Positions 11,788-63,810 of a stretch of 64,000 bases of DNA are shown here, in pieces. Both the position numbers and the translations under genes were made by a program. Numbering within the stretch: position 1 is the stretch's first letter; every line of letters begins with the position of its first letter. The DNA comes from Hydrolagus colliei (lineage: Eukaryota): positions 2,728,001-2,792,000 of the forward strand of contig CM068752.1 of the NCBI GenBank assembly GCA_035084275.1, read 5' to 3'. Under the pieces are notes generated by a model. It was given only the letters and a program-made list of their open reading frames with translations. It searched no databases and was not told the origin of the DNA.

Positions 11788-13527
11788 GTGATCGAGAAGA
11801 ATCTGAGTGGCTGGTGGTACATACAGATCAACGCTGAGGAGGGTTGGGCTCCAGCCTCGTTCATTGACAAATACAAAAAAACCAGCAATGCTTTGAGAGC
11901 CAATTTCCTGCCACCTTTAGCACATGAACTGGCTAAACTGAAACTTTCGGATGGAGCGTCTGGGAGCAGCACTAACGGAGGAGAAAGCACGTTCCCGACC
12001 AGACCTTTGCCCAAAGAGCCTCAGGCCTTGAACCACAATGATGCCGTCGAGCCTCTCACCCACCCCAAACTGAAGGACTGGAGGACAAAGGATATCAGTA
12101 AAAGTCCACCTTCTGCCAACGTATCCAGTGTTTCCCCCGACGGGGAATCTCAACCCAAGCCCTGTCCTTCTTCGAGTACTCCAACTGCAGACGTTCCTAA
12201 GTTAAACAAGGAGAAATCACTTTTCCCGTTAAAGAAAGAGCAGGTTAGCGGTAAGCTTGAGGCAGAACCATCAGAGAAACATTCCAAAGGTTTTCCCCCG
12301 AAGCCTCCTGTGCCAGGGAGTAATTTACCCATTTTACCTCCAAAACTAGGACCAGGGAAAGGCGATAAGAAGTCGGGTGCTGAACCGAAACCCAAAGGCC
12401 TTGAAGCTGGGCCTAAGATATCAGTCAGTGAAGTGACCAGGCCTCATCTCAAGCCTGTGGCAAGACCGCCAGCCAAATCAAAGTCTGATTTGGAAGACAA
12501 GTCGATGGAGCAGCCACCAAATCTCGGCTTAAAGCCGAGGCCCTTGCTGCGGCCAAAGCCACTTCCTGCCACCAAGGGGGATGTGCAGCCTGACTCCGAG
12601 CTCGACATTTCCAACCTGAGGAGTAAGTTGAGGCGTCCGAAAGCCGTGGATAAGGTGGGAGAGCAGGAGCCTGGCCAGCCCCCAGCAGGGAATCAGAACT
12701 CCTCCAACAACTTGCCCGCACTCGCTTGCAGCGGCTCCCCTGGCAATACAGATAACAGTCTCCACCAAATGAAGCAAAGCTCAGGGACGAGCTGTAAGGG
12801 AAGCGATGCCACCAAGGCTTTCCAGAAGGAGCAGAACGGCCATGAACATGAGCCGAATGGGCCGAGCGTCGGGCAAGAGAAAGTCGGGGGGTCGAAGAAT
12901 AACGTTGCTCTCTCGAAACCCTTCGAGAAGAAGGCGGACGACACTCAACTGAAGAAAACGCCTTCGTTCAACAGGGAATGTCCACCCCGCCCACAGGTCC
13001 CACCCAGGAGACCCGCGCTGCCAAAGAAAACCTCGGGAGAATCTGCGGTGCAACCGAAAGATACGGTCGAGAGCAAACCGGCCTGGGGGATAGGTAAACC
13101 GGCCATACCTCCCCCCAGGCCCAAACACGGCACGCCTCACGATCACGGCAACGATGATCTCAAACCCAGAGTTGGGCCGAGGGATGCCTTAGCGATCAAA
13201 GGAGCCCTTTTTCCCAAAGCTCACGAGCACAAGAGAGACCCGGTCACCCCTCCTAAGGAGGGGCCAAAGTTGCCGGAGAAATCGGATCAGGGGAAAGAGA
13301 AGGTTCACTTCGCGCCCGTCAACCTCGGCGAGGAATCCTCGAAGCAAAACCTTTATGTGGCTCTCGCTGATTTTGTCGGCGACGAGGAGACTGCTGGATT
13401 TAAGGAAGGCTCAATATTTGAACTCTTTGAGAAAAACACCAATGGCTGGTGGTACTGTAAAATTCTGAATCCTGAGCCAACCTGGGAGGGCTGGGTCCCT
13501 TCCAATTATCTGACCAGAAAATGTTAA
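11788..13527 (+). CDS. SH3PXD2B: SH3PXD2B terminal coding exon: end of SH3-3, long Pro/Lys-rich linker, SH3-4, stop
   Basis: cctttAG acceptor then VIEKNLSGWWYIQ...GWAPASFIDKYKK (the GTG is Val, not a start). C-terminal SH3 LYVALADF...GWWYCK...WEGWVPSNYL. 579-codon open frame ending in TAA. Confidence 0.97.
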   Translation: MIEKNLSGWWYIQINAEEGWAPASFIDKYKKTSNALRANFLPPLAHELAKLKLSDGASGSSTNGGESTFPTRPLPKEPQALNHNDAVEPLTHPKLKDWRTKDISKSPPSANVSSVSPDGESQPKPCPSSSTPTADVPKLNKEKSLFPLKKEQVSGKLEAEPSEKHSKGFPPKPPVPGSNLPILPPKLGPGKGDKKSGAEPKPKGLEAGPKISVSEVTRPHLKPVARPPAKSKSDLEDKSMEQPPNLGLKPRPLLRPKPLPATKGDVQPDSELDISNLRSKLRRPKAVDKVGEQEPGQPPAGNQNSSNNLPALACSGSPGNTDNSLHQMKQSSGTSCKGSDATKAFQKEQNGHEHEPNGPSVGQEKVGGSKNNVALSKPFEKKADDTQLKKTPSFNRECPPRPQVPPRRPALPKKTSGESAVQPKDTVESKPAWGIGKPAIPPPRPKHGTPHDHGNDDLKPRVGPRDALAIKGALFPKAHEHKRDPVTPPKEGPKLPEKSDQGKEKVHFAPVNLGEESSKQNLYVALADFVGDEETAGFKEGSIFELFEKNTNGWWYCKILNPEPTWEGWVPSNYLTRKC

Positions 13528-26201: not shown

Positions 26202-26505
26202 ATAATAATAATAATCCTTGCATTTGTTATAACACTGTTCACATCTTCTAGATGTCTCAAAGCGCTTCTCAGAATATACTGTAAAGCGAATTGACTGTAT
26301 ATTTGTGGGCGAAACGCGGCAGCCAATTGCGCACAGCAGCGTCTCACAAACAGTCGTTAATTGAAATTACAAATTTATTATTGTGTTTTTGAGGGATTAT
26401 CATTAGTGTAGAGTAAGGAAACTTGCCCAAGGTTTTGCCCTATCTGGTATTGAACCCACGTCTTTCGCTTGTCAGGCGAGTGCTCTACAGGACTGAGCTA
26501 CAGGA
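26202..26505 (-). mobile_element. tRNA-headed Deu-domain SINE, full length
   Basis: Tail, core and head (actgagctacagg) in reverse orientation. Confidence 0.88.
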
Positions 26506-30667: not shown

Positions 30668-31082
30668 AGAGTCTTCGAGCTTAGTGGTTAGAGCACTCGC
30701 CTCGCAAGCTAGAGGACCTGGGTTTGATTCCCAGGCAAGAAGGTTGGGCAAGTTTCCATACTCCACACGCCGCTGTTTACCTAGCAGTAAATAGGAACCT
30801 GGTTATTAGTCGAATGGCAGACCATTTTTCGAGGGGGCCATAATCCCTTTCAAATAAATACTGTAACATAATGATAATAATAATATGATCACTCAATCCA
30901 TGACTGTTTGCGGGACACAAGCTGTGCGCAATTGGCTGCCGTGTTTTGCCCAGAAAAACTGTACTACTGCACAGTCAATCCACTTTACAATACATTGCGT
31001 GAAGCGATTCGGGATGTCTCGGAGACGCGATCAAGGCACTACACCAAATTGCAAGGCTTATCATTATTATGATTCTTATTAT
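30668..31082 (+). mobile_element. Long-form SINE (tRNA head + extra central segment + Deu core + tail)
   Basis: Contains cgctgtttacctagcagtaaataggaacc...gatggcagaccatt-like segment between head and core, absent from the short form. Ends ~25 nt from the NEURL1B exon 3 donor. Confidence 0.8.
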
Positions 31083-31107
31083 TCTTGGCGATGCGCTGAG
31101 CGCTTAC

Positions 31108-31815
31108 CAAGTATCTTGAGTTGATTCACCACACCGTGCAGGCTGAAGAACACCCACAGGGACTGCGTGGTGTCCACGCAGATCAACATGCCCATGTTTG
31201 TGCCATTCACCCGGTGGTGAAGCTCGCTGTTGGGCATTATGGTGAAGCTGAGGACGTCGCCGCTGTTGGGCACCGAGAAGCCCCTGTAGACCACCCAGTA
31301 CTCCTTGCGATCGAGCAGGCAGTCGGGATCCGCCGGCAGCTCGTTGACGCGCAGAGTGCTCGGGTCGCAGGACGTCACCCCAAACAGCAGAGAGCCGTAG
31401 TACGGCAGCCCCAAGTGACCCGCCTCCACGTACAGGGTCTCGCCGGTGTGCAAAGGCCGATCGGAGAACAGGAGAGTCCGGTTGCTCTCCTTCCAGTTTG
31501 TGCAGGCGCGCATCCTGTCCTGTGACAAGGTGACGTCGGGCCCTCGGACCAGGTGAAAATGGAGGTCGGAGTCGAGGACGGACGGCAGGCCCCGCGAGCG
31601 CAGACGCCTGTTGGGGCAGCACGGCAAAGCCTGATTGTCCGGCGCCAGAGCCTGGACCTCCCTCAGGTTCAGGTTGGTGATTTTGGCCACCACCACGCTG
31701 TTCTCCAGCTCGTTGTTGTTGAAGTTGGCGTTGTCGTGGCTGGTCTGCGGGAGGTAACTGCTTAACCGGGCCGCGTTGAGCCTGGCCGACGTCACGGTCT
31801 CGGCCAACATGCTGT
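31108..31815 (-). CDS. NEURL1B: NEURL1B exon 3: inter-NHR linker and NHR2 domain
   Basis: tttacAG acceptor, G|GTAAGC donor. (D)SMLAETVT...LHFHLVRGPDV...LLDRKEYWVV...VNQLKIL. 708 nt, phase 1-1. Confidence 0.95.
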
Positions 31816-31859
31816 CTGTAAACAAAGAAGAAATGGGGGATAATATGGGCATGGCGAGG

Positions 31860-32005
31860 TTACGGAATGGAATTCTACAATCGTGGAATGTTACAGCACA
31901 AGAGGGAGGCCATTCGGCCCATCATGCCTGTGCCAGCTCTTTGGAAGAGCTACCCAATCAGTCTGGCTCCCCTGCTCTTTCCCTATATTCCTTAGAATCA
32001 ATCGT
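31860..32005 (-). mobile_element. CR1-type LINE 3' end fragment
   Basis: gttacagcacaagagggaggccattcggcccatcatgcctgtgccagctct...cccctgctctttccctat. Confidence 0.65.
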
Positions 32006-38130: not shown

Positions 38131-38221
38131 TAATTCTTACATTTCTGCAACAATAAAATAGTTTTGAAGCTTTTTAAAAATATATATAAAGATATACATT
38201 AATAACCATTGAGGCACTCAC

Positions 38222-38782
38222 CGAGCATTTGGACTTCTTGCGTAATTCCGTAAATGTCGATCAGTGCCCAGAGTGTCCCCGAGACGTTAATGCCGCACTG
38301 AAAGAGGATCGGGTCCTCGTCATTCACATTGTAAAATACTCGTCCGTGTCGGTCCAACCAGAAAGCCAGGACGTTGTCCCTCAGGGCAAACCTTTCGGGC
38401 AAGGCCTTTGCCCAGTAGCCTGGTCGGGTCACCAGGTCGGGGCAGGCGTATTTTGGGATCTCCGCTGAATTCATCAGCGAAGGATCGTGGCTGGTGAAGC
38501 CGAACCGCAGGGCGCCGCTCCATCCGTGAAGCACCACCGAGAGCCGGAGCCTGACTTTCTCGTACAGGTGGATGGGGCGGCTGCTGAAGGTGATGCCGTT
38601 GCAGAAGCTGCTCTTCCGCGTGGCTTTGCGAAGGTTCGGGTCCAGGCGTATGTTCTTGCCTTTGGCGTGAGAGTGAAAGCGCGGCGTCTCGGCGATGGTG
38701 GGGTGCGCCCGCCTCTCATGACCGCCGGCGGGGAGCGTGTAGTACTGGCGAGCCGTCCCAGGGCCCGAGTGGTGAGTCGTGT
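38222..38782 (-). CDS. NEURL1B: NEURL1B exon 2: NHR1 (neuralized homology repeat) domain
   Basis: cttacAG acceptor, G|GTGAGT donor. PRFHSHAKGKNIRLD...SFCNGITFS...GWSGALRFGFT...PKYACPDLVTRPGYWAKALPE. 561 nt, phase 1-1. Adjacency to SH3PXD2B supports the 1B paralog. Confidence 0.96.
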
Positions 38783-41761
38783 CTGTAAGTGACACAACCG
38801 CGGTTATTACGTTGCACCTTTCAACAAAAACCCTTATCCTTTCGTTCAGACGATCGAGGCACAATAATATAATTAGTCATTTTTGAATCCACGAACGGCT
38901 GCTTGTGGGACACGGTGGTGCGCAATTGGCTGCCGTATTTTCACCCACAAATATACAGTCAATTCATTTTACAGTACATTCTGTGAAGTGCTTTGAGACG
39001 TCTAGAAGACGTGAAAAAACGCTATATCATATTCAAGGATTATTATTATAAGGCGTACACCTATTGTATGCCACTGTTTGCCAATTTGGCTGAGATCAGC
39101 TTAAAAAAAAAGAAACTAAAACTTTCCCACAGTTTAAGCGCTCCGAGATGCTGTCCGGCGTGAAAGGCACTACATAAACACAAATTGTTGATGCTGTGCG
39201 TAGCAATATACTGAGTGGATTCCATGTCCTCCCCATTCCCCTGATAGATATCCATCAATCCAAGCAGAGCTATAAAAAGTCAACAAACTCTTGTTTTCTC
39301 ACTAATCGTAGCAATTAAACTGGAACAAAGATACAATTAAACGTTTACTGTTTGGTATGGTGGATTTGGTTCAAGATTTTCAGATTAGTGTTGTATGTAG
39401 TGAGGTTTAACCCTCCAATAAAAAAGTGGGTATCAGTGCATTCTTTCAGGCATTTGCGAATACACAGTCACTACATTGTACAGCACTTTAGACATGAAAA
39501 ACGCGGCACCACAATTCAAGGACTATTATTGTTACTGATGTTTTAACTGAAGGCAACAGACATCACTGTTAGAGATTGCTGATAACAATAGATGTATTAT
39601 TCACTGAATACCAATTGATCCAAATGATTTTGTAGCTACAGTACATCAAACCATAAATCTCCTGCGTGAAGATTTTCAACGAAATGAACTTTTGAATCGG
39701 GGACCGTTACATTTTGCCCTTGGATAGCACGTTAAGATGTTCTCTTTTCATAGCGTTGACTACATTACACGAACCACACACATTATCAGATTAAGATATC
39801 GATCCAGGAAACTGTGGGGCTTTCTAGTTGAATTATGGCATAACATATGTCCGACAGAACCGTTTCCCTCCGAGGCTGAAAATAAAAGCCATAACCCAAC
39901 AGACACCGTGACCGAGCCAGGATTCATGCGAAGTGGTTCTTAAGATTGTAGCAGAAGCTGTGTGACCACAAAACAAACAAGGTTCTCACCAGTCACAGTG
40001 AGCTGCAAGGGTTCATCCACCCACATGAAGGCAGTCATCGTTTACTCCCCACCCCCATACAGCGGGCAAAACGTTATGGGTCAGGCCTGATTGTGAGAGA
40101 AATGTCATCATGTTTATGCTCCCAAAGCTTAAGACGGGGGGGGGGGGGGGGGGGCAAGAAACGGAATGAAACCTACACAGTCTGGCTTCAGATGTTTGAC
40201 CCTGATTTAGGGCAAGCCAAAGCCCCCAAAATCTGCAACGCAAATGAACGATTCGGTTGATGAGCACATGTTTCGAATATGCAAAGCATGTCCTTAAATC
40301 GGGTTGACTGCGAATATAATCACACAGCCTAATCTGCTCAGTTGAGCCGAGAAGCGTTTCTTCGAAGAATTTCTGCCAGCATCACAGAGCTGGCTGAAAT
40401 ATCAAAATATTGACCGCAGCAAATTCTCCTCGTTAATTCGCACAGACATCAGTGCATAATTCACACTGGGGGGAGAAAAGACCAGAGAGAACGACTGATA
40501 TTCATCATTGGAACAATGGAGCAGCTGACAGTCAAATGATTTATGAAAAGATTATTACCCTGCAGGCTACATCATCTCTGGGCACACATGATGCTTATTT
40601 AATTATTTGCTTTTCAGACCCACCCATTGGTCTCAATAACCTCAGCTCCTTTTATCCGAGGACAGCGAGGCAAGTCAGGGTGCATTGGGAAGCTTGTTAG
40701 TGGAAGAGAAGCAGGTTGGTTACAAGGATCAGCGGAATCGAAAAGTAACTTACGTCCTCGATCAATAATCCACGACTGTTTGTGGGACACCGCTGTGCGC
40801 AATTGACCGCCGCGGTTCGCCCACAAATATGCAGTCAATTCACTTTACAGTTTATTCTGTGAAGCGCTTTGAGGCATCTGGAAAACGTGAAAAGCGCTAT
40901 ATAAAATGCAAGAATTATTATCATAAAAAAAGCAAACAACACTATTAACTGTTAAATACCGGATAGTATGTTTAACGAGCACAGGCATTCTGGCTGTTTT
41001 GATGTTTGATAAAAGTCTCTATTTCTTAATGTTTGATACAGGTCCCTATTTCTATGGGATGTGATTTACGAAGTATATATCCTCAGCAGCTGAATCTTTG
41101 AGGTAAGTTTATTTTTGTTTCACATACAAACGAGGACAGATATCCAGATTTGTTTCCCTGTAAAAACCACTTGAGTTGAATCGAAGGATCCACTTCCTCC
41201 ATGTTCTAAGGTTGGTTCAGGTTGGATATTTCTGGGAAATGGTTTGGCCCACTTTAATGAGCCCCAGCCATAAACTAAGCTGCAGAGAAACAACGCAAAT
41301 TCTTCCTCCGGTTGAGATGCAACAAAAATAATAAGGTACGTAGGAAGTCAGTATTTTATTATTCTGGATCCATGGAAACTTCACACCAAATAGAAGAAAG
41401 ACTTCGGCTGGATAGACCATATTTTGAGAATTCCAATTGCTGTGACCTTACAGGAAACTCAATTAAAATATGGAAAGATAAAAACAGTCCAGGAATCGGT
41501 TGTGTTTTACGTTTAGGTGAACTTTGAATATTGAATGAAAGCAGTGTGAATCCTACACTTAAACCTCACCCATTCCCAGAAATAATTAACAAGCACCAAG
41601 CTACAATCATATATTGCCCTTCACGGCAGGCAGGTACACAAAGTCCTTTGAGAGCAGTGATCCATTTAAGAACTAAACAAAAACACCTCAAAACAAGGAA
41701 TGCTTCCCTGGAAAAGTTGGAAAGTGCTCTTGAACTGTTTCCAAACTGCAGCCGCATTGGA

Positions 41762-42748
41762 AATAATAATAATAATAATCATAATAATAATCTTCTAGAC
41801 GGCTCAAAGCGCTTCACAGAATATACTGTGAAGTGAATTGACTGTATATTTGTGGGCGAAATGCAGGAGCCAATTGTGCACAGCAGCGTCCCTGCAAACA
41901 GCAGTAGATGGAAAATGACCAATTTATTATAGGTTTTTTTGGGATGGATTATTATTAGGCGTGTGTGTGGAGTTAGGAAACTTGCCCAAGGTTTAGCCCT
42001 GACCTGCCTGGATTCGAAACACAGGTCTCACGCTTGTAAAGTGCGCTAACCACTGAGCTACAGGAGCTCCACAAATGTAACCGAACTCTATTGTAATAAT
42101 CCCTGCATTTGATATAGCTCCTTATCAGGTTTTCTAGACGTCTCAAAGTGCTTCTCAGAGTGTACTGTAAAGTGAATGCACTGTATACATTGTGGGCGAA
42201 ACCTTCCCTTCCTCTCACTTTCCTTTCTAACATGAGCTGCTGCGATGACCAACGATCAGTAACGGATGCAGAATGACCTCCGTGAAAGGGGCCCTTGTAC
42301 AGACAAATGGAACAAAACAAAATCTCCGCCAGTTAAAAGAAATGTGCCTCGTTCCATGTGACATATTCCAATGCGAAAGCAATCTGTGGCCGCGCTGATT
42401 AGGAATTAATTTGTTGGTCACAGAAAATGTAATAATAATAAATAAATAATAATAATCCTTGCATTTGATATAGCCCTATTCACATATTCTGGGTGTCTCA
42501 AAGCGCTTCACAGAGTACACTGTAAAGTGAATTGACTGTATACTTGTGGGGGAAACACGGCAGCCAATTGCGCACAGCAGTGTCCCACAAACAGTCGTGG
42601 ATTGAAATGACCAATTTTTTTTTTAATTGATGGAATTATTATTAGGCGTGGAGTAAGGAAACTTGTCCAAGGTTTTGCTCTGATCTGCCTGGATTCGAAC
42701 ACAGGCTTGTAGGGCGAGTGCTCTAACCACTGAGCTACAGGACTCCAT
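41762..42748 (-). mobile_element. Cluster of reverse-oriented SINEs (41762-42072, 42095-42205, 42430-42748)
   Basis: Two near-full copies and one tail fragment, all reverse oriented. Confidence 0.85.
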
Positions 42749-44475: not shown

Positions 44476-44533
44476 AATTAAGGCATCTTTTGAGGCATCT
44501 CAAAGTGCTTCAAAGAATATACTGTAAAGTGAA

Positions 44534-44647
44534 ACAAAAACAGAAGTTGCTGTGGAAACTCAGCAGGTCAGGCAGCATCCATGGAGAAAGGAAAAGGAAT
44601 CAACGTTTCGGGTCTACAACCCTTCGTCAGAACTGGGGCTTGTTTGC
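44534..44647 (-). mobile_element. Penelope-like terminal-repeat remnant (single arm) inserted in a SINE, with 14-bp flanking duplication
   Basis: TACTGTAAAGTGAA at 44520-44533 and 44648-44661. The insert matches the arms of 50060-50190 and 63467-63647 and carries a CTGACGA...GAAA motif on the - strand. Confidence 0.7.
44599..44633 (-). ncRNA. Minimal hammerhead ribozyme motif (Penelope-type)
   Basis: - strand reads GTT-CTGACGA-A-GGGTT-GTA-GACCC-GAAA-CGTT-GAT: intact core, stem II, palindromic ACGT in place of stem III, weak stem I. Confidence 0.55.
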
Positions 44648-49265: not shown

Positions 49266-49694
49266 ATAGCTACAGGACTATTTATTTCATTATTTGCTGC
49301 CTGACCTGCTGCATGTTCCCAGTGACTTCTGTATTTTAATACGGAATAGGTATCGGGTTATGAAAATAAACTCTTTCATTTTTGCAGGAGTTGAGGGCTT
49401 CATAGGAGGAACCACAGGGAACAGAAATAGAATATGCAAATGTCAGTTCAACTGCTACAAACTGAACTCGGGTCATAATTTGCATACGTTAATTAAGGAA
49501 ATGATTGGATGGAAATAAGTGCTGATGAGGTTTATTTGTCCCATCCACTCAGGTGTAAAATACCTCATCTTTCTGCCATCAAGAGCAATAAACAGCATTT
49601 CAATTCCTGAAGGAGAAAGAAAGCAAGTGGAATCCTCGTACGAGGGATGATGATAATAATAATAATAATCCTTGCACTTGATATAACGCTTTTC

Positions 49695-50009: not shown

Positions 50010-50260
50010 GGGAGATGGATGGAACTTCTACAAAAATTGTTGGGAACACTCAGCAGGTCAGGCAGAATCTATGGGGAAAGGAAAAGTGAGTCAACGTTTC
50101 GGATCCACGACCCTTCATTAGAACTGTTCTGACGAAGGGTCGTGGACCCGAAATGTTGACTCACTTTTCCTTTCTCCATAGATGCTGCCTGCCGAATGTA
50201 CCCAGTGAGTTCTGTAGGAATGTCAGATTTCCAGCTTCTGCAGTATCTTGCGTTTTTGTT
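50010..50260. mobile_element. Penelope-like inverted terminal-repeat remnant (palindrome) with hammerhead motifs on both arms
   Basis: Arms 50061-50124 and 50126-50189 are reverse complements (6 mismatches in 64 by my count, 1-nt spacer). + arm reads GTT-CTGACGA-A-GGGTC-GTG-GACCC-GAAA-TGTT-GAC. Confidence 0.7.
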
Positions 50261-51401
50261 GGATGAATCTTCTGACGGGTTGAAAGGTTAAACATCTTGT
50301 ATGCTTAAGATTTATTCTGCTCCCTGTCCAAATAATTGTCCCCAGATGTGGAAGGGCTTGCCCACACACATCTGTGCAGCCCATCAACCTACTGAGGAGG
50401 ACCATTAAATAGTATATGAAGGAGTCATCTTCTCTCTGAATGGTTCCTTCTCTGAACAGGACAACCATCTTATGGAGATGAAATTTAATGAACACATCTA
50501 TTTATACAGTGTCTGACTCCCAAGTTTTGCCGCTAGTAGAGAGATTTTAAATTATTTTTTATCCAAGTTTTGGGAGCCAAAGGGTTTAAATACAATAGCA
50601 GGAAACGGTTATTTATTTTCTTTGTATATTATTGAGCTTGAAAGAGTTTCCCCCAAGAAGTTTATTGTGAATAGAAAATGACGACAGCCTCCTACAAACC
50701 CAGTGAAGTCAATTTCATGTTAGTTTGCGCTTTGAGACGTCGATAAGACGTGGAAAGCACTATATAAATGTAAGAATTATTATACATATTATTATAGTTT
50801 CTTACACGACTGTTGCGGAAGATGAAAAATATCATTATCAACTATTCCCGAAGTCACCAATCTGTTCCATACAAAGAGTAACTCTTGTTTCATGTCCACC
50901 TGCGCTCTGCAGCTCTCTTAACAACACACTAGATTTTAAACAAACTAATTTAAGATCCCCCCACCCCCCACAACCACCACCCCCAATCAGTGGCAAGTTA
51001 ATAATCAGGGCTAAAAGACAAGTTTTGTGTTACTTGGTCAAAATTGGAACAGTATTATGTAGCCGTAACATGTTAGTTGATAGGATGTGATCAGGCCTTA
51101 TATTAAATTGCAAGGGTGATTATTTAACACGCAAAAATGAATGGAATCATCTGAAGCAAAACATGGAGGTTTGCCAGTGTTAAAAACTAATGCATTTTCA
51201 GCCACCCAACCTCAGACAGGGTAGATCTCGTCTACAGGAATCTGGAAAGATGGGCTCCTGTAGGTTTCAGTGCCCTGGGCCATCTCCTGACATGAAAGGC
51301 GCTATACAAGTGTAATTTTATTGCTGTTGTTGTTATCACCCTACATCTCTGGTTGTCTACTGAGATCAGGTTTCCATCTGTGGTGGATCTCCAACTTAGC
51401 C

Positions 51402-51949: not shown

Positions 51950-52262
51950 AATATTATTAATAATAATAATCTTTGCATTTGATAATGCGCTTTTCACATC
52001 TTCTAAACGTACCAAAGCGCTTCACAGAATATACTGTAAAGTGAATCGATGGTACATATATGTGGGCAAATCGCGGCAGCCAATTGTGCACAGCAGAGTC
52101 CCACAAAGAGTCTTGGAATTGAAATTATTAGGGGGTTTTTAGGGATTATTATTAGGCATGTGTAGTAAGGAAACTTGCCCAAAGTTTCGCCCTGCCTGGA
52201 ATTGAACCGGGGTCTCTCGCTTGTAAGGCAAGTGCTCTAACCACTGAGCTACAGGACTCCAC
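51950..52262 (-). mobile_element. tRNA-headed Deu-domain SINE, full length
   Basis: Reverse-oriented tail, core and head. Confidence 0.88.
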
Positions 52263-62734: not shown

Positions 62735-63810
62735 ACTCACTTGTCAGACATCAAGTCCTGGATGAGAGCTAACTTTCTACAGTTAAATATCAACAAGACC
62801 GAGTCTCCCCTGATTGTGCTCGTGCCAGCGCCTTCACACATCAGGCAATGGCAGCATCAACCTCACTAAGCCAGTCAGGAACCCAGGTGTCTTGCTCTTT
62901 CCTCCCACACATCCAAGACATGACCCACTCTGCGTTTCCTCACCTCCGCAACATTGCCCGACTCCGCCACTATCTCACTCTTCAGGCTGCTGAAACTCTA
63001 ATTCGTGCCTTCATCATATCTAGGCTCGGCTACTCCAAAACCTTGCTTGTCGGCCTTCCCAATTCCTCCCTTCATAGGCTGCAGATAATCCAGAACTCTG
63101 CAGACCGCTCCAAACTCCGTGACCCCATCTATCCCATTCTTGCCCGACTCCATTGGCTCGCCATCACCCAGAGAATTCAATTAAAAATCCTGGTCCTCAC
63201 CTTCAAAGCCCTCCATGGCCTCGCCCCACCATACTTCTGCGACCTCCTAACCGCCTACCAATCTACCCACTCCCTCTGCTAAGCGGGCTCCGGCCTGCTC
63301 CATGACCCCCAACCCATCATCGGTGGGCAAGCCTTCAGCCACTCTGCCCCTAACCTCAGGAATTCCAACCCACAGTCCCTCCACCTTGCCCCCTTCATGG
63401 CTCCTTTCAAGTCCCACCTCAAGACCCTCCTCAAATAAAGCACAAAATACTAAATTGCTGGGAATCTGAAACAAAAACAGAAGTCGCTGGTGAAACCCAG
63501 CAGGTCAGGCAGCATCCATGGAGAAAGGAAAATGAGTCAACCCGTTCTGACGAAGGGTTGTAGATTCGAAATGTTGACTCTTTTTCCTTTCTCCATGGAT
63601 GCTGCCTGACCTGCTGAGTTTCTCCAGCAACTTCTGTTTTTGTTTCAAGGCCATCCTTTCTGACTGTCCCATCAGTCGCCCCAAATCCCCTCCTTTCACT
63701 CCACCCTCCCCGATCTCGACCCCAGCTAGGGTCTGAAACATTGACTGTCCAGTGCCTTGGGACACGTTCTTACGACGTGAAAGGCGCTATACTTTCACGT
63801 TGTTGTTGTT
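62735..63810 (+). mobile_element. 5'-truncated, decayed L2-clade LINE (RT C-terminal region, 3' UTR, tail), interrupted by a Penelope-like remnant
   Basis: gacatcaagtcctggatg...NFLQLNINKTE-like coding, then HLRNIARLRHYLTLQAAETLIRAFIISRL..LQIIQNSA..PILARLHWL..RIQLKILVLTFKALHGLAPPY (ORF 62848..63282), typical of L2 ORF2. Frameshifted; ends gggacacgttcttacgacgtgaaaggcgctat...gttgttgtt. Confidence 0.88.
63432..63647. mobile_element. Penelope-like inverted terminal-repeat remnant with a hammerhead core in the spacer
   Basis: ~75-bp arms 63467-63541 and 63573-63647. Spacer and arm read GTT-CTGACGA-A-GGGTT-GTA-GATTC-GAAA-TGTT-GAC. Confidence 0.68.

Follow-up and report, generated by a model that had tools for sequence, protein, structure and literature searches.

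The class of minimal hammerhead motifs was reportedly described in 2014. The accessible text of PMC4209133 names an extra nucleotide after A9, a short helix I and palindromic positions 15.2-16.2 as features of the minimal type I form, and describes it as working weakly and only as a dimer. According to the accessible parts of the reports on Adineta Pen2a (PMC3846280), the general scheme (PMC8557442) and Penelope of D. virilis (PMC2377424), EN+ Penelope-like elements (PLEs) carry a hammerhead in the pLTR and leave insertions with an inverted 5'-truncated head-to-head copy and a target-site duplication (TSD), with a tail of 30-40 bp on one end only; the family described here shares these features. 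For PAc, the Poseidon element of Anolis carolinensis, the available text of PMC11167929 reports that both target strands are cut and extended in vitro from two adjacent internal RT start sites, that ribozyme cleavage is not needed, and that the protein is predicted to be a dimer. How inverted ends and one-sided tails are formed and what the hammerhead does in PLEs are stated as open in the accessible text of PMC3846280 and PMC11167929. The element class, motif, inverted arm, tail and duplication discussed below are already in print.

The window, that is, the whole stretch of 64,000 nucleotides of Hydrolagus colliei that was analysed, contains at 50030-50260 an insertion of two head-to-head arms centred on 50125 and separated by a 1-nt spacer. 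Unit coordinates are used throughout, counted from the first C of the core CTGACGA as 0, with cleavage predicted after +28. The short, tailless arm (50030-50125, minus strand) is a copy of the element leader from -4 to about +91 and is 91.8% identical to subfamily A over 97 nt; the long arm (50126-50260, plus strand) covers -3 to +136 less a deletion of 5 nt, includes the PLE tail of about 35 nt and is 86.4% identical to the same subfamily. The left copy of a 14-nt TSD (50016-50029, plus strand) matches the right copy (50260-50273, plus strand) at 12 of 14 positions. Arm boundaries, duplication and the presence of one tailed and one tailless arm are read directly. The inverted arms and 1-nt spacer noticed in the preliminary description were recovered, with complementarity at 58 of the first 64 positions, and the palindrome folds as RNA with z = -16.6 (equally good folds in 0 of 200 shuffles). 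The extent of 50060-50190 given there has been corrected to 50030-50260, since the minus arm continues to about +91, the plus arm continues to +136 and the duplication flanks both. With a probability of roughly 0.7, we read this insertion as a single decayed two-armed leader insertion of a Neptune-type PLE, in which both strands of a staggered cut were primed on uncleaved RNA and the copies ran off the cap. With one long arm, one short arm and a duplication of about 14 nt it matches the family pattern exactly; as a locus it is ordinary, one of tens of thousands of copies of a known class of element, and dead.

Both arms carry a minimal type I hammerhead motif and both motifs are damaged. The plus-strand motif (50126-50161) has the core CTGACGA at 50129-50135, helix I GTT/GAC, the extra A at 50136, helix II at 50137-50149 and GAAA at 50150-50153, with a predicted cut after 50157. 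Its letters from 50126 to 50160 (GTT-CTGACGA-A-GGGTC-GTG-GACCC-GAAA-TGTT-GAC) are the same as those first read. This arm keeps the core without the self-complementary tetramer ACGT of helix III, which is changed to ATGT by a C>T substitution at 50154 and is needed for helix III of the dimer. The minus-strand motif (50089-50125) keeps ACGT and has the mutated core CTAATGA that had been noticed at the outset (G5>A at 50119), together with changes at N7 (C>T, 50117) and in stem II (C>T, 50103). Either strand of 50030-50260 is predicted to fold into a long hairpin in which the motif is buried. That both strands encode a functional ribozyme is not supported, since a transcript through the locus would carry one sense motif predicted to pair with its antisense partner. 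Cleavage at this locus is unlikely on these predictions, given that both arms are mutated and pair with each other. The motif is likely cargo, and because it is predicted to be sequestered in a hairpin no cutting of host RNA is expected. No hammerhead family appeared among the 25 Rfam matches at the locus. Locally, the suggestion that the inactivating change lies on the host-transcribed strand fails as well: the minus-strand copy at 44599 is intact, and neither arm at 50125 is free of damage. A search for the first exon of the neuralized-like gene, which is on the minus strand, did not locate it, so host transcription through 50125 is putative.

Additional copies are present in the window. A solo short arm of subfamily B (44530-44646, minus strand, unit -16 to +100) has an intact core and ACGT and sits inside a tRNA-derived repeat, flanked by an exact 14-nt duplication. 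The second head-to-head pair, also of subfamily B (63434-63647, both strands), combines a tailed minus arm from +26 to +134 with a tailless plus arm from -6 to +100, whose motif has stem II GATTC and helix III ATGT; its 13-nt duplication is identical at 11 of 13 positions. A 42-nt scrap of the hammerhead-bearing unit (49295-49336, plus strand, +54 to +95) contains no ribozyme motif. Sixteen arms were counted in the 264 kb around the window, four with the exact 21-mer used for the genome-wide count. Subfamilies A (50125) and B (44599 and 63544) are the same in short units and in long copies. Stem II at 50125 had been described as differing from the copies at 44599 and 63544 with pairing kept; this stands for 44599, while the copy at 63544 reads GGGTT-GTA-GATTC and not GACCC. 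The difference between 50125 and 44599 separates the two subfamilies and is one-sided (C-G to U-G in helix II), not compensatory, and helix I likewise differs on one side (U-G/C-G) with pairing kept. When more divergent stem II sequences were sought for covariation, all of the 100 matches listed (of 182) were mutants of the 50125 family.

Other features of the window are given for completeness. A LINE-like ORF fragment with no Pfam match (62773-63282, plus strand) adjoins the 63434 pair. The tRNA-derived repeat is very abundant (for example 26204-26382, 42445-42623 and 52187-52258), with tRNA-like heads and one 64-nt part that occurs in as many as 26 direct copies, and we take it to resemble the Deu-domain SINEs of cartilaginous fishes. 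Host exons are arranged tail to tail, with the last exon of an SH3-domain gene at 11788-13527 (plus strand), presumably SH3PXD2B, and exons of a Neuralized-domain gene at 31079-31921 and 38199-38876 (both minus strand), presumably NEURL1B.

The identity of the element was established from its protein-coding copies. In 20 of 20 loci chosen by protein similarity alone, the unit lies downstream of RT/GIY-YIG remnants in the same sense, which bears out both the proposed Penelope-like origin of the minimal type I motif and the adjacency to RT and GIY-YIG ORFs for which a check had been suggested. The element protein has the RT motif YIDD, a CxxxxCxxC linker and a GIY-YIG domain with two internal cysteines; the linker and a CxxC within GIY-YIG were seen in three loci (L066, L075 and L076). 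Pfam searches of the broken copies gave RVT_1 at E=3e-4 and GIY-YIG at E=5e-4, both under the curated cut-offs. The Neptune clade is defined in the accessible text of PMC8557442 by a CX2-5CxxC linker between RT and EN and a CCHH motif in EN. Both are recognizable in this protein, and judged from its sequence the layout would be of the Neptune/Nematis type, the linker being common to Nematis. Copies that extend upstream of the unit show a pyrimidine-rich stretch followed by GIY-YIG and RT remnants. Seven of the 30 loci selected by the N-terminus also have part of the unit immediately before the ORF (L213, L214, L215, L222, L225, L238 and L239), of which L222 and L238 start at -3 and, having a common flank, were counted once; in L213/L196 the unit is found both before and after the ORF. 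Near-full-length copies thus also start with the hammerhead-bearing unit, and the first ATG of the ORF follows about 170 nt after the core. Because the unit both follows and precedes the ORF, it reads as the autonomous element's 5' leader, which occurs as a pLTR at both ends. An intact ORF of the 50125 family was not found among the 150 + 150 matches listed; the longest open frame among the copies examined is 535 aa with stops read through, and all are broken.

A different and intact PLE family, with 31% identity to the 50125 family, was encountered on another contig (L281 and L282, G000:C21:18684000-18704000). It forms a head-to-tail array with a period of 6,627 nt near the contig end and has further matches on C18, C20, C2, C38 and small contigs. 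Its ORF1 (566 aa, stop to stop) has no Pfam match and contains a GDxN motif reminiscent of SGNH esterases, and its ORF2 (783 aa) matches RVT_1 and GIY-YIG above cut-off. Every repeat period includes a brief stretch of TTAGGG, and next to the array is a field of degenerate TTAGGG; a search of the 20 kb for a CTGANGA..GAAA motif found none. This element may be telomere-associated and recently active.

The 50125 family is dispersed, as had been proposed, and comprises at least 7,656 arms, counted as exact 21-mer matches in the 1.0-Gb own genome (control 0); 3,806 are on the forward and 3,850 on the reverse strand, counts that are not relative to genes. Extrapolation from the 16 arms (four exact) in 264 kb gives a total of roughly 30,000-60,000. 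The anatomy of the family was evaluated in the first 97 exact 21-mer arms on contig C1 (first 7.9 Mb), a sample that the exact match biases to younger copies. Fifty-nine arms had a partner match; after three distant or upstream-only partners were dropped and reciprocals merged, 44 pairs remained, and exclusion of five pairs with a decayed 3' end from the long/short tally left 39 classifiable pairs. The 97 arms represent 85 insertions (44 head-to-head pairs and 41 solos). Their 3' ends are bimodal, at about +97-103 and about +131-137, and the difference of about 35 nt is the PLE tail. Among the 39 classifiable pairs, 37 are long+short, two are short+short and none is long+long; the solos comprise 20 long, 20 short and one unclear arm (contrast with pairs p=1.4e-9). 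Such asymmetry speaks for coordination between the two priming events, which plausibly use one common RNA. Flanking duplications, 10-18 nt long and for the most part 13-14, were seen at 29 of the 44 pairs and 10 of the 41 solos, or 39 of 85 insertions overall against 9 of 7,140 shuffled control pairings. The sample therefore contains the combination of inverted 5'-truncated copy (44/85), 30-40-bp tail and TSD (39/85) by which EN+ PLE insertions are recognized. Twelve of the 97 arms reach more than 60 nt upstream.

Several smaller observations concern the structure of the insertions. The fillers at head-to-head junctions (for example L157, L188 and L192) often consist of 5-12-nt pieces from the ribozyme region patched together, which suggests repeated template jumps at the RNA end. 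Arms of one subfamily B pair have variants in common beyond shuffled pairs (2.1% vs 1.1%, 0 of 2,000 permutations), and no such excess was seen in the 14 pairs of subfamily A (0.8% vs 0.9%, p=0.61); gene conversion or co-active subfamilies could also produce the sharing in subfamily B. The leader holds two further acceptor-like sites (a pyrimidine run followed by AG), at about +52 in subfamily A and about +103 in both (L136, L146 and L185), and no splice donor was identified for them in these loci; PLE leaders are known to contain introns. Six copies of one motif variant about 18.9 kb apart (G000:C3:71071417-71164338) belong to a large tandem duplication that carries the stub passively.

An insertion of this kind would arise as follows. 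The element RNA would start at A(-4), four bases before the core and the first base of helix I (50125 on the minus arm). The RT-endonuclease would cut both target strands about 14 bp apart, and priming would occur at about +100 from one target end and at about +136 from the other, giving two internal start sites. Both cDNAs would end at or short of the cap and would then be joined head to head. The leader lies at the 5' end of the full-length RNA, and priming there gives only stubs of 105-140 nt, which would explain why stubs outnumber long copies. The most serious competitor to this double priming, though we consider it unlikely, is that one cDNA or antisense template turns at the ribozyme and copies back, so that the palindrome comes from a single priming. 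Self-priming of this kind has been proposed for the palindromes of rotifer PLEs in the accessible text of PMC3846280, and it is in keeping with short inverted ribozyme-region pieces in many junction fillers and with the variants shared by subfamily B arms. The arms at 50125, however, reach -4 and -3 with a 1-nt spacer and leave no room for a priming loop, and self-priming alone accounts neither for outer ends at the two fixed positions of the solos nor for ordinary duplications of 13-14 nt.

The 5' ends of the arms fall in -8..+1 in 38 of 60 arms at risk, as compared to 4-15% per 10-nt bin downstream, and are spread across this interval rather than placed at one base; both arms end there in 7 of 44 pairs, and neither arm is at the hot spot in 16 of 44. 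Among genome-wide arms with an exact core, 821 leave the upstream sequence at -4, 575 at -5 and 500 at -6, and 964 continue to -8, departures at -7 and -8 falling outside this tally. Of the 575 arms whose base at -5 differs from the genomic C, 292 have G and 283 have A or T, against an expected 28% (p=4e-30); the control base at -6 (500 arms) is G in 37 and another base in 463, but TCAG microhomology with the inverted arm inflates this contrast, which makes 28% the fairer reference. Inspection of 38 G cases showed 25 to be solos, in which the duplication abuts the G in 11 and is absent beside it in 14; in the former the G is untemplated by the target in 8 of 11 and templated in 3 of 11. Microhomology in helix I was considered as the source of the extra G and rejected, as it accounts for only 1 of the 38 cases. 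The sequence CCAGTTC around A(-4) (50125 on the minus arm) agrees with YYANWYY, the initiator consensus. D. virilis Penelope has, according to the accessible text of PMC2377424, a TATA-less internal promoter that includes an initiator, and the untemplated G at full-length L1 and SVA 5' ends is attributed to cap copying in what is available of PMC3287187. The excess G at -5 fits a copied cap.

The same pile-up could in principle mark a splice acceptor or a stall of the RT at the ribozyme fold, the stubs being ordinary 5' truncations of long RNAs. The CCCCAG that follows the pyrimidine run upstream of -2 is also splice-acceptor-like, the end of an intron in D. virilis maps to helix I in the accessible text of PMC4209133, and the 964 arms that continue upstream would be expected. 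We nevertheless regard this explanation as improbable, somewhat more so than self-priming. Solos with abutting duplications leave no space for an upstream exon; a fold would be expected to halt the RT at its 3' side (+33), and the ends show no accumulation there (7 of 97 in +26..+33); and a stall offers no reason for the G at -5. The count of 7 of 97 compares with about 6 expected from neighbouring positions, so there is no excess of 5' ends at the cut site, with low power for a one-base peak; paired arms likewise show no enrichment there (6/88). Because of this missing excess, cleavage is apparently dispensable in the 50125 family, in keeping with priming on uncleaved, capped RNA.

The state of the ribozyme across the family bears on whether the stubs are elements in their own right. 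The core and ACGT are retained in 25 of 62 sampled arms that span the motif, and such members have the minimal type I features. Core positions decay like their neighbours, most at CpG, and this lack of extra conservation, named beforehand as an outcome adverse to a functional family, was indeed found; it is the pattern of dead copies and no argument against function in the source element. By nearest-neighbour energy the active dimer of an intact natural copy is not favoured (-14.5 vs -28.3 kcal/mol), in a model that omits core contacts and protein help. An independent, non-autonomous retrozyme-like element with a palindromic unit of about 230 bp, selected against on host-transcribed strands, is very improbable. 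Short copies do far exceed long ones (12/97 arms reaching >60 nt upstream) and have their own TSDs, and retrozymes are reported as PLE derivatives in the accessible text of bioRxiv 10.64898/2026.07.22.740005. Against this, the arrangement is head to head at the locus and in 44 of 44 pairs (inverted partners were systematically searched), not a head-to-tail tandem with two complete hammerheads; the core positions decay like their neighbours; and an intact motif persists on the minus strand at 44599. Junctions vary among insertions, with no recurring fixed palindromic master among the 39 classifiable pairs, the unit equals the leader of the autonomous element, and the subfamilies are those of the long copies. 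The earlier idea of a unit mobile by itself therefore survives only in part: short copies were inserted as units, because they have their own duplications (39/85 insertions), and an independent mobile palindromic element is unsupported. A DNA-transposon MITE without a PLE link, or a microRNA hairpin, has only the fold-back shape and generic hairpin matches to Rfam miRNA models below the gathering scores (62.6 bits against a threshold of 249, 56.6 bits against 90; rejected) in its favour and is extremely improbable, the MITE reading being refuted, given linkage to RT and GIY-YIG in 20/20 loci, variable duplications of 10-18 nt and unequal arms in place of equal terminal inverted repeats and a fixed short TSD.

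Returning to double priming on uncleaved RNA, we see about an even chance that the stubs constitute an in-genome record of PLE transposition, in which RNA capped at the first base of the hammerhead is copied by a dimeric RT-endonuclease after a staggered cut of about 14 bp, with two cDNAs primed at fixed sites, 35 nt from each other, on a single uncleaved RNA. If this is true, the inverted pLTR and one-sided tail are explained without antisense self-priming, and the ribozyme would be a switch for cap removal, not a template-making step, as the cap would be lost on cleavage. The insertion is of value for its family statistics, namely the long+short rule, the 5' pile-up with its cap-like G and the lack of a cut-site excess, from which specific predictions follow for the in vitro system and for CAGE data. 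The long+short rule and the cap-like G were not found in the literature searched, with most subscription papers outside the search. No account of a Penelope hammerhead in sharks was found there either; the supplements of PMC4209133 and bioRxiv 10.64898/2026.07.22.740005 may list motifs of cartilaginous fishes.

Comparison with the described systems serves to place the family. Relative to EN+ PLE insertions, 50030-50260 is reduced to two leaders without an ORF, and, relative to the Neptune clade, all copies examined are broken. The tail is 'often' one-sided in the accessible EN+ PLE literature, whereas the 50125 family shows a near-strict long+short pattern (37/39) and a cap-like G that is absent from those texts. 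With the minimal hammerheads of metazoan PLEs (PMC4209133, accessible text) the 50125 motif has in common the short helix I, the extra nucleotide after A9, a G10.1-C11.1 pair, the palindromic 15.2-16.2 and the absence of a helix III loop; it differs in its 5-bp helix II (7-8 bp in S. mansoni), its GUU cleavage triplet and the mutation of both motifs at the locus. Non-LTR retrozymes, according to what is available of bioRxiv 10.64898/2026.07.22.740005, are likewise short, non-coding and PLE-derived with a type I hammerhead, but form head-to-tail tandems with two motifs on one RNA, whereas in 50030-50260 the two copies are inverted and each strand has a single sense motif. PAc (PMC11167929, accessible text) is similar in that two RT start sites define the tail and ribozyme cleavage is apparently not needed. 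The ORF of PAc starts in stem II and its RT start sites lie 111-118 nt into the ORF, whereas the first ATG of the 50125 family comes about 170 nt after the core, so that the whole stub is untranslated leader.
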